Translations under genes and position numbers: made by a program
In this document: in pieces, positions 11,105-62,167 of the stretch
Position numbering within the stretch: position 1 is the stretch's first letter
How the letters are laid out: the number at the start of each line of letters is the position of its first letter
Source: Octopus sinensis
Lineage: Eukaryota
Length of the DNA stretch: 64,000 bases
Direction: 5' to 3'
Assembly: GCF_006345805.1 (NCBI RefSeq)
Contig: NC_043003.1
Location: forward strand, 115,320,001-115,384,000
Notes under the pieces: model-generated
Databases searched by the model: none
Told to the model about the DNA's origin: nothing
The model's input: the letters and a program-made list of their open reading frames with translations, nothing else

Positions 11105-11142
11105 GGCTCAGGAGTGGCTGTGTGGTAAGTAGCTTCTTACCA
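11105..11142 (+). mobile_element. 5' head of a SINE family A copy, split by the 11143-13426 insertion
   Basis: caggagtggctgtgtggtaagtagctt matches the intact head at 62911; the SINE resumes at 13427. Confidence 0.85.
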
Positions 11143-11432
11143 GACAGACGTGCTGTTTTTTGCTCCGGCAAATGTCACGTGTTAACGTGAATTATTGAAC
11201 ATTTTACGGCAACAGGTAGGACATTTTGGATATTTTTGGAAGCATAGTGAGGTTTATTGCTTGCCGTTGATACTTTTTTGTTTAATTAGTGTTAACACTT
11301 TTCTGCGCGCAATAAGCTTCACTTTGCTTCGGATGCATTTGTTCTGCCTGTTGGCGTATTTATTGTCTCACCTTTTAGTGAGAATTGTGTATTTTGAAGA
11401 GGCATAGCCCCTCCTCAAAAATTAATTTGTTC

Positions 11433-11519
11433 GCTTGGATTTACCACGGAGAACCAATTGTGCTTGGATTTACCACGGAGAACCAATTGTGCTTGGATTT
11501 ACCACGGAGAACCAAGTGT
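11433..11519 (+). repeat. 29-bp tandem repeat x3 in the element 5' UTR
   Basis: Unit gcttggatttaccacggagaaccaattgt starts at 11433, 11462 and 11491. Confidence 0.95.
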
Positions 11520-11686
11520 GCTGCAACTAGGAGTACCCTGTTTCGTGAGGATTACCAGTTGCAGAACTGTGTTGCCATTATTTGAACTGTCTTCCTTCGT
11601 CCTTTTCTCTGTTCTGTCTTTCTGCTCTGTCATTGTGTTTTTTTCTTATTGGACTTTGAACTTTTAGTTGAGATTTTTTCAAAATC

Positions 11687-12892
11687 ATGGCAACAAAAGA
11701 AACCACTGCTTTGGAATGGGAGGTTGTCCCACCCAAGCAGTGGATTGAAAGTCTTGAGAAGAGGACGGTGGTCCTACGAACCTATTCTAGGTCGCGTGGA
11801 GCTATCGCCCTCTTCGACAGGAGCACCATAGAGAAAGAGTTGGGGGACCACCTACCAACGATAAAGTTTATTTCTCGGGGGAGTAAATTTGCAACGGTGT
11901 GGTTGCTGTTTGGTACCCCCGAGGAAGCTAGCAGATTTGCTAGCGAGCCACTGGAGGGAGAGGAAATTTTGTTCCTCCCCTCGTATTGTGGCAGAAAAGT
12001 AAAAAGAGCCTGGGTTTGTGGGATGCCCCCGGGCACGGAGGCGGAATGGATCGAGAACACCATCCGGCGAGGCCTGGGGGATAGCGGACCCAGGCTACTG
12101 AGTGTGAAAATGGCTCCCGCGGTCGCCTGGGAGGGGTCAAAGGCAACTTTGACCCTGTGGACACCGGTGGCCGTGGGAAAAATGAAATTCCCGGACTTCC
12201 TGAGAATGGCTGGGCACAGGTATCCGGTGATACTCGAGGGACGCCCCCTCCCCAAGTGTCACCTGTGCCTGAAGCCCGGACATATCAAGAGGAATTGTCC
12301 CGGGGGCCGTGGTGGTGCCCCGGAGCATGAAGGGGAAAAGGCGCCCGCCGCCCCCTCATTGGAGGGGGAGACGGTGGAAGTCGTGGAGGAGGTTGCCTCC
12401 ACGAAAAGAAAGAGACAGGCGAGCAACAATGGCTGCTCGCCAAAGAACGCTCAGGTGGCGGAGGGGGATAGCGATCCCCCGTATCTGGTGACGGAGTCCC
12501 CTGGGTCAGCAGTCTCCCCCAAAAGAAGGAGGAGAAAAAGAAAGAAAGGTCGGGCGGCTGATATCCATGAGCCGCAGACGTTGGCGGGAACTGTGCCGCC
12601 AACGAAAGAACTGAACGTATTGGTCCTCTTCTATAGAGGAGGAGAAATTGAAAAAAAAATGATGGAAGAGTACCACAAGGGAGCTCCTTTAGCCTTCACA
12701 CAGGACCCCGAATGGCCTCCGCAGATAGCTGTGGAGGCCGTGGCGTTCGACGTGACGCTTGGGCTAAAGGAGCTCAGTGAAGATTATAGCTTGGTCCCGG
12801 GCGACGCGAACTCGGAACTTGATTACGTTCTGAGGGAGGCGTGGTTGATGGTGGAGGGCGCGGGCACAAGCTATTTCGAGGACGATATGTAA
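11687..12892 (+). CDS. LINE ORF1/gag-like nucleic-acid-binding protein, 401 aa, with a CCHC zinc knuckle
   Basis: Uninterrupted GC-rich ORF with a good ATG context (aaaatcATGG). C-X2-C-X4-H-X4-C (CHLCLKPGHIKRNC) is preceded by FP..L...G....V.LEGRP as in Tx1-type ORF1. Basic stretch PKRRRRKRKK. An RRM-like N-terminal half is inferred. Confidence 0.85.
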   Translation: MATKETTALEWEVVPPKQWIESLEKRTVVLRTYSRSRGAIALFDRSTIEKELGDHLPTIKFISRGSKFATVWLLFGTPEEASRFASEPLEGEEILFLPSYCGRKVKRAWVCGMPPGTEAEWIENTIRRGLGDSGPRLLSVKMAPAVAWEGSKATLTLWTPVAVGKMKFPDFLRMAGHRYPVILEGRPLPKCHLCLKPGHIKRNCPGGRGGAPEHEGEKAPAAPSLEGETVEVVEEVASTKRKRQASNNGCSPKNAQVAEGDSDPPYLVTESPGSAVSPKRRRRKRKKGRAADIHEPQTLAGTVPPTKELNVLVLFYRGGEIEKKMMEEYHKGAPLAFTQDPEWPPQIAVEAVAFDVTLGLKELSEDYSLVPGDANSELDYVLREAWLMVEGAGTSYFEDDM

Positions 12893-12907
12893 TTATTGAA
12901 CTGTTAG

Positions 12908-13252
12908 TATTAATAATGGACTGCTAAGTCCAAAAATTGGAAAATTGAAAGAGGTTTAATACCTCGTTTTGCATTTTTATTAATAATGGACTGCTAAGTC
13001 CAAAAATTGGAAAATTGAAAGAGGTTTAATACCTCGTTTTGCATTTTTATTAATAATGGACTGCTAAGTCCAAAAATTGGAAAATTGAAAGAGGTTTAAT
13101 ACCTCGTTTTGCATTTTTATTAATAATGGACTGCTAAGTCCAAAAATTGGAAAATTGAAAGAGGTTTAATACCTCGTTTTGCATTTTTATTAATAATGGA
13201 CTGCTAAGTCCAAAAATTGGAAAAATTGTAAGAGGTTTAATACCTCGTTTTG
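12908..13252 (+). repeat. 70-bp tandem repeat x5 in the element 3' UTR
   Basis: taataatgga recurs at 12911, 12981, 13051, 13121 and 13191; four copies look identical and the fifth is slightly diverged. Confidence 0.97.
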
Positions 13253-13426
13253 TGTTTATCTTTAAAAAGAACAATGTTTTAGAGAAGCGAAAGTCGGCGG
13301 GCGCTTTTTGTCTTCTCCCATCCTTATCATCTGTCTTTCATTATCATTCACTTCATTAATGTCCTCGTCCAGCCCGCAAAGCTAACTTAATCTGTGTACT
13401 GCCTTTATGGCAAATGTTTTGAAATA

Positions 13427-13805
13427 AAGTAGCTTGTTTACCAACCACATGGTTCCGGGTTCAGTCCCACTGCGTGGCACCTTGGGCAAGTGTCTTCTAC
13501 TATAGCCTCAGGCCAACCAAAGCCTTGTGAGTGGATTTGGTAGACGGAAACTGAAAGAAGCCCGTCGTATATATGTATATATATGAGTGTGTGTTTGTGT
13601 GTCTGTGTTTGTCCTCCTAGCATTGCTTGACAACCGATGCTGGTGTGTTTATGTCCCCGCTACTTAGTGGTTCGGCAAAAGAGACCGATAGAATAAGTAC
13701 TGGGCTTACAAAAGCATAAGTCCCGGGGTCGATTTGCTCGACTAAAGGCGGTGCTCCAGCATGGCCGCAGTCAGATGACTGAAACAAATAAAGGAATAAA
13801 AGAAT
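13427..13805 (+). mobile_element. Remainder of the split SINE family A copy
   Basis: B box GGTTCAGTCCC, body, internal microsatellite and tail ccgcagtcagatgactgaaaca, as in other copies. Confidence 0.9.
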
Positions 13806-24379: not shown

Positions 24380-24845
24380 GGCCCTCTTAATACAGGAAAT
24401 CCTTTAGGGATAATCGAGGGACCTCACAGTCCGAGGTTTCCCTGAAACCCCAGGAGCAAGTGCCCCCTGAAATTCCTTCTCCCCGACTCACAGGCCAATA
24501 TTTAGTGGTACCATCTACTCTTGCCATTTTCGCAACTTTCATCCGACTTCCAATAAACTCACTCCAGGACAGTGTTTACTCTCATTTTTCTTTTCAAGTG
24601 AAACTTGAAGAAGTCAATAAGAGCTCAACCAAAGAGAAATGTATTTGTCCTGTTCCCGTTCAGCTTTGTCCACCAAACAACCTCTTTCGGCACAGCCACA
24701 GAGCAAAATAAAACTGCCTTGCCGGCCTGATTGAAAGAGGCTGGCGATGAAATCATTACGACAGACTCGGTCGACCGACAGGTCCCTCCTACACATTGTA
24801 GCAACTATTGAGCATAACCCTAAAGTCAGCAATGCCCGGACATTA
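24380..24845 (-). pseudogene. Decayed Tx1/L1-type LINE ORF2 C-terminal fragment
   Basis: Frameshifted translation KEVVWWTKL..TNTFL...LIDFFKFHLKRKMRV...VAKMARV aligns with the 61745-62137 peptide. Confidence 0.75.
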
Positions 24846-61372: not shown

Positions 61373-62136
61373 TGTTTCTTTATTAGCCACACAGGCTGCA
61401 CACAGATAGAACAAATTACAAGGTAAAGCTTTTCTTTTGAAGGTATTAAAAAAAAAAAAAAAGGGGGAGGTTCGATCAAAGGGATCGTAAAAGGAGAGAA
61501 AGAGGACAAAAATAAGGGGGGTTAAAAAAAAAATAATAAAAAAGGGGGGAGAGGGAAAAAAATGATCAATAGGATCGTTATCACAGAAATGTCAATATGA
61601 AGTGTAAAAGGGGAGGACAGGTGAGGTTTACCCGTGGAAAGAAAAGCCTGCGGAAAAGACCACGGTAACCTCGGTCAATGAAGTCACATTTATATTTTTT
61701 TTTTTTTTTGCAAATAAGCAACTCTCTGTTTTCGATTTCTGGGTTCATAGGACTATGCTCAAGGTGGCTTCGTCATTCATACGTGCCATTCTTGCTACAT
61801 TCACCCATCTTTTTTTAAAACATTCGCTAGACAAAACTTGCCTCTCTACTCTCACTTTCTTTTCAAGTGGTACTTGAAGAAGTTGATGAGAGATTGACCA
61901 GAGAGGAAAGTGTTTGTCTCCAATCCTTTCAGACGCGTCCACCAGATACATTCTTTCGCCATAGCCACAAGGATGATGAAAATAGCTCTTCCTTCCCGTT
62001 TGAAGGAAGGAGGCGTGACAATATTGACGATAGACTCAGCTGATAAACCGACTCGTCCCACACGTGACAGCAGTTGTTCGACATAAGCCCACAGGTCGGA
62101 AATTGTTGGACACTGAACGAGTGCGTGCAGAACGGT

Positions 62137-62137
<1 letters not shown>
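61373..62137 (-). mobile_element. 5'-truncated Tx1/L1-type LINE (ORF2 C-terminus and 3' UTR) inside (AGAT)n
   Basis: TVLHALVQCP....LW (end of the L1/Tx1 C-terminal knuckle)...AKECIWWTR...F.KRW; stop at 61745; one frameshift near 61855; tail gcagcctgtgtggctaataaagaaac; AGAT repeats on both sides. Confidence 0.82.

Positions 62138-62167
<30 letters not shown>

Follow-up and report, generated by a model that had tools for sequence, protein, structure and literature searches.

The window analysed here is a 64,000-nucleotide stretch of the Octopus sinensis genome (contig NC_043003.1, positions 115,320,001 to 115,384,000), and on its forward strand lies a full-length, non-autonomous LINE of 2,284 nt that encodes only an ORF1 protein (11143..13426; the same two ends are found in 28 of the 30 best-matching loci). 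The element is inserted in a tRNA-like SINE, whose 5' part, or head (11105..11126), stands upstream of nearly all full-length copies and holds an A-box-like motif. Head and element are separated by a 16-nt left repeat (11127..11142), with the first ~9 letters target-like and the last 7 fixed in the family. A 17-nt right repeat (13427..13443) carries the target allele, which differs between loci; together with the SINE body, in which a B-box-like motif can be read, it occupies 13427..13805. An earlier note on this DNA had placed the split SINE and the ends of the element correctly, but its imperfect target site duplication (TSD) is not a decayed one, the left copy being a family-fixed string.

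Within these limits, the element begins with a 544-nt 5' leader (11143..11686) that is swapped between subfamilies, contains a 29-bp repeat in 3.1 units (11433-11522; 1 to 5 units among copies), and likely acts as an internal Pol II promoter. A candidate promoter motif in the leader, similar to the downstream element of Drosophila LINEs, was considered and dropped, its distance from the junction varying between families. ORF1 starts with the ATG at 11687, is open for 401 aa (11687..12892), and is followed by a 70-bp tandem array of 4.9 copies, or 5 units (12908..13252), and by a 3' tail (13264..13426) that is ~70 to 100% alike among ORF1-only subfamilies. Leader, intact ORF, and repeat-filled 3' UTR had all been described accurately, as had a hairpin near the end (13400..13412; 4-bp stem, variable loop of 5 to 6 nt); the AATAAA reported with it (13423..13428) spans the junction of element and target, which contributes the final two letters, and the same junction is seen at other loci. 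A poly(A) tail is absent from the 3' end in the sequence, and a second candidate pairing scheme was spotted by eye in the 160-nt tail. With E values of up to 1 allowed, Rfam returned five weak matches, all scoring far under the gathering thresholds, and no HDV-like ribozyme. Contigs from four presumed-RNA runs cover parts of the element, giving neither strand, start, nor level of transcription, and the genomic copies that they could derive from are many, so that they speak neither for nor against expression.

With a complete ORF2 from the same genome as query, tblastn detected no similarity inside the element, in agreement with the earlier report of no reverse transcriptase or endonuclease trace, and its matches in the window were confined to two regions, around 24.6-24.8 kb and 61.7-62.1 kb. 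The former region (24574-24816, minus strand) holds a C-terminal piece of an L1/Tx1-type ORF2, with 52% identity to L092, and the latter (61375-62140, minus strand) a 5'-truncated copy of a very young autonomous LINE in (TATC)n, of which L092 is a full-length copy and whose tail hairpin shows a compensatory change relative to SINE-targeting tails. The view that the other LINEs of the window are decayed has to be given up for this second copy, which is truncated, yet over a 94-aa piece is 100% identical to 150 of the 150 copies scored.

AlphaFold2, proposed in the earlier note for characterizing the ORF1/CCHC protein that it had recognized, gave a confident model (pLDDT 80-97) for aa 11-200 of ORF1 and not past it. 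The top Foldseek matches were the tandem RRMs of hnRNP A1, HuR, and IMP3 (E ~1e-4, low TM), and two RRM domains are accordingly predicted at ~aa 27-183 (11765..12235). They are followed by a CCHC zinc knuckle at aa 191-204 (12257..12298), identified from the alignment, in which two of its Cys are nearly invariant, and from a match to Pfam PF00098 at aa 190-205 (E 0.01, under the curated cut-off). No Transposase_22-type Pfam match was found in ORF1. Two RRMs plus a CCHC knuckle is the layout of a type I ORF1 in the scheme as summarised in PMC5203782. ORF1 has 38 database relatives, ten of which were looked up; the six with names are all from octopods. P0005 and P0039-P0041 are ORF1 homologues on sequences of 1.85-1.93 kb, a size that would suit ORF1-only elements in another organism. 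A search with P0001, a protein that one source labels Octopus sinensis and that the genome (G000) encodes without a single difference, returned 138 genomic places, every one at least 59% identical. The 30 that were examined comprise several subfamilies with differing leaders; in most, the tail and SINE site are no more than ~1.2 kb away from the ORF1 core, and the flanking sequence covered contained no ORF2.

A DNA search with the element only, excluding SINE letters, in which the best 40 candidates were scored, recovered 27 places matching from base 1 over 1.8 to 2.3 kb at 93 to 100% identity. The SINE-site 3' end was present in all 30 of the best loci, the SINE head on the left in 29, and the window's first letters at the start of the element in 28. 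Counting exact patterns, which gives lower bounds, we found at least 151 copies of the 27-nt tail; 143 of these run straight into the first 6 letters of the target, and the five examined among the remaining 8 are SINE copies with a point change. Exact left junctions of the window's 5' type number at least 53. Against at least 586 exact filled SINE junctions for all families together, the genome (G000) has at least 57,332 exact empty sites, for an occupancy of ~1% that is rough, because the counts are lower bounds and the patterns differ between filled and empty sites. Genome-search candidate totals (3,065 to 26,426) included loose matches and were discarded as copy numbers. Copies are interstitial and spread over many contigs. 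They share the ORF1/3' UTR junction, as had been anticipated, but not the distinct TSDs also anticipated, since all use one target; this strict specificity had been overlooked. Several older subfamilies (L036, L038-L042, L053, L232, and L241) occupy an older SINE allele, which suggests that the elements and their target changed in step.

These copies bear on whether ORF2 was merely lost from, or concealed in, the window, either through a one-off internal deletion of a LINE or through assembly collapse at the 70-bp array. The window's array is unusually long, with 5 units compared to 1 to 2 in the 28 other copies counted, and internally deleted copies do exist in the complete LINE family described below (L146). 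However, the same ORF1-to-tail layout recurs in those 28 full-length copies, whose short arrays imply that the 70-bp array hides nothing, and it is kept in 39 of another 40 loci, as well as between subfamilies whose dS exceeds 1. These 40 are tail-bearing places outside the earlier match lists, taken with ~6 kb upstream: the SINE site is next to the tail in 40/40, ORF1 is present in 39 (its N terminus is reached in 36), and ORF2 is present in 0/40. Nor was ORF2 found within 1.5 kb of ORF1 across L001-L060. The multi-copy data refute deletion or collapse, which retains virtually no probability, and the two outcomes that the earlier note had named as fatal to its proposal, a single-copy element or an ORF2 in other copies, both failed to appear.

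SINE sequence borders nearly every copy left and right, and the copies have a uniform left repeat, which would also be compatible with movement of the whole SINE together with its insert, as a composite retroposon or by DNA-level duplication; the target specificity would then be one ancient insertion, inherited. The two SINE halves, however, differ by allele and by 4 to 6.6% between loci, compared to ~1% for the element (the SINE head has 4% mismatch to the column majority), and the allele table already suggests incongruent histories of element and SINE. Moreover, unrelated families, 5'-truncated copies of the complete LINE, and tandem arrays share the site. We consider joint movement very improbable.

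Copies of the window's type are 0.4 to 2.0% from the column majority, and pairwise distance within the window's subfamily is 2.0%. The recent activity suggested earlier is thus upheld, and the distance from the majority is a better sign of it than the intact ORF originally cited: the full ORF1 is open in only 5 of 29 copies of the subfamily, that of the window included, and broken in 24, some of these breaks possibly being assembly errors. As had been recommended, dN/dS was computed among copies, using 60 ORF1 pieces (aa 1-215) out of 65 loci. Values were 0.23 at dS 0.4 to 0.8 (71 pairs), 0.19 at dS 0.8 to 1.5 (394 pairs), and 0.13 above dS 1.5 (869 pairs), from pairs that are not independent, with some pieces crossing frameshifts and high dS near saturation (63 of 1770 pairs saturated). 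ORF1 is therefore under purifying selection between subfamilies (dN/dS of 0.13 to 0.23), and pN is below pS in most C-terminal ORF1 comparisons. Among the youngest pairs, dN/dS is about 0.75 to 1 (0.75 over 136 pairs). Constraint between subfamilies, combined with mostly broken copies, indicates that selection works on copying lineages rather than on resting copies. The strong long-term constraint, and the long separate stem of the ORF1-only clade in the ORF1 tree, could alternatively mean that ORF1 is kept for a host function or for inhibition of the complete LINE rather than for its own copying, in the manner of L1TD1. Yet single copies decay, as the broken ORFs and the dN/dS of the youngest pairs show, and constraint between subfamilies is expected if only copying lineages are selected, leaving a retained host or inhibitory role a slim chance.

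The window's subfamily is itself a recombinant, with a switch of parent near 12560-12600. In 100-nt bins of identity, sequence upstream of the breakpoint interval (12543..12642) is 79 to 100% identical to one subfamily and sequence downstream is 88 to 95% identical to another; some relatives match the query over positions 1-1419/1438 only.

A truncated ORF2 that ends exactly at the SINE site, beside another copy, served as query for a candidate partner family, in which 28 of 30 ORF2-bearing 3' ends are at the SINE site. Long partner copies measure ~5.4 kb and encode ORF1 and ORF2, and 16 of 17 are preceded by the SINE head. Both ORFs are open in one copy, L130, which has an ORF1-only element in tandem behind it, and 15 of 16 partner copies are 1.0 to 2.4% from L130; at least two partner subfamilies exist, ~80 to 85% alike in DNA. 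The partner combines a type I-like ORF1 (RRM and CCHC) with an ORF2 of the L1 group (APE, RT, and C-terminal zinc domain). Among solved structures, the L130 ORF2 is closest to human L1 ORF2p, with EN and RT covered (E 3e-65), and it is 58% identical over its length to the ORF2 of L092, which carries PF03372, PF00078, and PF13966. Architecture and target specificity, rather than a tree, suggest that the partner belongs to Tx1; RRM/CCHC combinations are consistent with Tx1 in the summary of PMC5203782, and the 120 homologues listed include no Tx1-named entries. Some partner-family copies (L119, L121, L123, L129, and L146) are apparently internally deleted, with 5' sequence near the ORF2 end. In the partner leader, a second target-like remnant lies ~20 nt past the first (L130:1915-1960), as if 5' heads had been added stepwise.

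The window's ORF1 is only 27 to 29% identical to that of the partner (27% for L130), and the tail that ORF1-only elements share with the partner is confined to the last 36 to 44 nt. A tail match of 36 nt at 81% was seen with an older partner copy; L130, the youngest partner copy, gave no blastn match to the window element at E 0.01. The terminal hairpin has the same 4-bp stem in 51 of 72 distinct tails, with 7 different 5-nt loops, and is likely a recognition signal for ORF2p. Taken together, the common site, tail, and age make it likely that the partner's ORF2p mobilises the ORF1-only elements in trans. The L092 family was rejected as a helper: its tail is related and its autonomous ORF1 is 24% identical to the window's, but its target is a microsatellite. 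The low ORF1 identity to the partner, the presence of more than one partner subfamily, and the scoring of the best 40 to 150 candidates per search, behind which a closer autonomous relative could be hidden, would also allow ORF2 to come from another, unsampled autonomous family with a more similar ORF1. We regard such a helper as unlikely, given that the P0001 search yielded no place below 59% identity and no ORF2 at the places examined, and that the L130 family matches in site, tail end, and age.

On the ORF1 comparisons, the ORF1-only family reads as an old lineage rather than a fresh deletion of the partner, because so little ORF1 identity remains between the two. In a 42-row ORF1 tree, all 16 rows from ORF1-only elements group together with 100/100 support, on a long stem of 1.74 changes per column. 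Two placements of this clade, beside the partner's ORF1 (p 0.39) or beside a second ORF1-only lineage (p 0.087), were each left unrejected by AU tests on 22 rows. The latter is a 1.5-kb element at the same SINE site that was found through tandem arrays, and its ORF1 is 24 to 30% identical to the window's and 31 to 42% identical to the partner's. At 30 loci of this lineage (L218-L247), no ORF2 was found downstream in the flanks; 23 end with the tail and target junction, often into another element's left repeat, 6 are without a tail-target junction, and 1 match is spurious. A third group of ORF1 relatives (L248-L262), 40 to 49% identical to the second lineage, lies away from the SINE site and has no ORF2 directly after ORF1. 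Mixed arrays of 2 to 4 elements, with one left repeat between neighbours, occur at L096, L097, L098, L099, L130, L189, and L202. Of 40 unselected loci, 2 are arrays, one of them triple; this exceeds the ~1% expected from occupancy, and filled sites may attract insertions. One ORF1-only element (L058, and also L049) begins with 23 letters that match the partner's 5' end, which points to leader exchange between partner and passenger.

The left repeat behaves differently from a simple copy of the target. Among 29 informative copies of the window's 5' type, it is the exact family string in 24, the family string with a slip of 1 to 2 bases in 3, and the copy's own target in 2, whereas the right repeat changes with the SINE allele at each locus. 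Letters 10 to 16 follow the family in 27 of 29 window-type copies and in 19 of 20 copies of the sister subfamilies and the partner. In comparison, two 5'-truncated partner copies (L101 and L127) have duplications of 15 to 16 nt in which the left letters are those of their own target; at other 5'-truncated partner copies the duplication is short or is replaced by a small deletion. For letters 1 to 9, compared in 82 copies, no variant was common to both repeats (3 left-only and 9 right-only, with 2 indel copies dropped), although elsewhere, in L097/L218 and L241, variants shared by both repeats do occur. Since the last 7 letters follow the element and not the target, the RNA seems to carry target-like letters on its 5' end, and the simplest reading would be that full-length RNA begins within the left repeat, 7 to 10 letters in. 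For R2 (PMC3774820) and R1 (PMC2718515), a proposal of this kind, with RNA that starts in target letters, accounts for uniform 5' junctions.

We conclude, with a probability of about 0.87, that the window holds a member of an old, recently copying ORF1-only LINE family that inserts at a fixed position of a tRNA-like SINE and is likely trans-mobilised by the complete LINE of the L1/Tx1 group that shares this site. The earlier proposal, an ORF1-only element that borrows ORF2 in trans, is thereby supported. A Pol II transcript would yield the element's own two-RRM/CCHC ORF1p, which would coat its RNA in cis, while partner ORF2p would bind the terminal hairpin, cut one strand of the SINE directly downstream of the A-box-like motif, and start reverse transcription from this nick. 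With an RNA start 7 to 10 letters within the parent's left repeat, the cDNA end would anneal to the target overhang and so write the family letters into the new left repeat. More tentatively, the RNA might read through the junction-made AATAAA into the SINE and pair with the primer, which would account for 3' ends that are exact yet lack poly(A). Mixed tandem arrays would arise as elements insert again into the repeats, and there families would recombine and swap leaders. In the human L1 assays of PMC2666806, Pol II transcripts require ORF1p, which offers a reason to retain ORF1. A wider, three-tier reading is possible, but we hold it only tentatively, at somewhat less than even odds: the SINE would be a safe harbour, exploited by a site-specific LINE and, through it, by at least two long-lived ORF1-only lineages with ORF1p 27 to 40% identical to the helper's. 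Non-cognate ORF1p and a 40-nt tail would suffice for mobilisation, each element would bring its own target-like 5' letters, and filled sites would attract further insertions, among which families recombine.

Mammalian L1-type ORF1p comprises a coiled coil, one RRM, and a CTD, and HAL1 ends in poly(A) and is dispersed, with little target specificity. The octopus element, with a type I ORF1 (RRMs and CCHC) in place of the Transposase_22 type of HAL1, a strict sequence-specific target, no poly(A) tail, and the low ORF1 identity to its partner noted above, works like HAL1 but falls outside a strict definition of it in ORF1 type, tail, and target. Likewise, HeT-A is telomeric, in head-to-tail arrays at chromosome ends, while the octopus copies are interstitial in SINEs and their arrays are short and inside SINEs. 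Common to HAL1 and the octopus element is the coding of ORF1 only, under long-term constraint; HAL1 encodes only ORF1p, has several origins, and has been proposed to use ORF1p in cis and ORF2p in trans (PMC5753468, PMC3627910). Non-autonomous LINEs in which ORF1 is present form a class with HeT-A (Jockey), Ag-Sponge (CR1), and HAL1 (L1) as examples in PMC5786205, where no Tx1-type or mollusc member is named in the part that treats this class. As in HeT-A and Ag-Sponge, a 5' part with ORF1 is joined to a LINE-like 3' end (PMC5786205), and the octopus element has the features of the class: an ORF1p homologue, no ORF2, many insertions, constraint on ORF1, and a shared 3' end.

Target-specific Tx1 elements covered in PMC4494074 include Xenopus Tx1 (in Tx1D), crocodilian Tx1-Mar with SINEU, Keno (U2), and Kibi/Koshi (microsatellites). 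The octopus system resembles them in that an APE-type LINE inserts into another repeat, passengers share its target, and tandem insertions form around the TSD, but it differs in its tRNA-like SINE target, of which none is named in the relevant part of PMC4494074. The octopus passengers also encode ORF1, and the SINEU passengers of Tx1-Mar do not. Uniform 5' junctions and tandem arrays formed by insertion into the TSD are shared with R1 and R2, going by the passages on these in PMC3774820 and PMC2718515; the octopus elements are of other clades, use another target, and gave no HDV-like ribozyme with Rfam. Our literature search, to which Repbase, Dfam, and subscription papers were external, found nothing on this family or on a SINE-targeting Tx1, and in the passages covered two papers on octopus repeats (PMC13282606, PMC8967140) mention L1-Tx1 in counts or lists only. 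These families may be present, as L1-Tx1 consensus sequences without names, in the supplements and repeat library of the O. vulgaris annotation (PMC13282606). ORF1-only LINEs and transposon-targeting Tx1 elements are each already known; what appears to be new, as far as this search reached, is the combination of an ORF1-only LINE with a SINE target.

With these elements, the range of ORF1-only LINEs comes to include a mollusc and a sequence-specific system of L1/Tx1 type, for which a probable helper is at hand, and site-specific LINEs of the APE type gain a SINE as a target. The family-fixed left repeat speaks, at the genome level, for homology-guided priming of the second strand in elements other than R1/R2. 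A short tail may be enough for mobilisation, a property relevant to targeted-insertion tools. Gene models annotated as "uncharacterized protein" in octopus, P0001 among them, are explained as transposon ORF1s. Considering that the ORF1 kept by the passenger is far from that of its helper, the element and its partner are a natural experiment on the role of ORF1p in cis.
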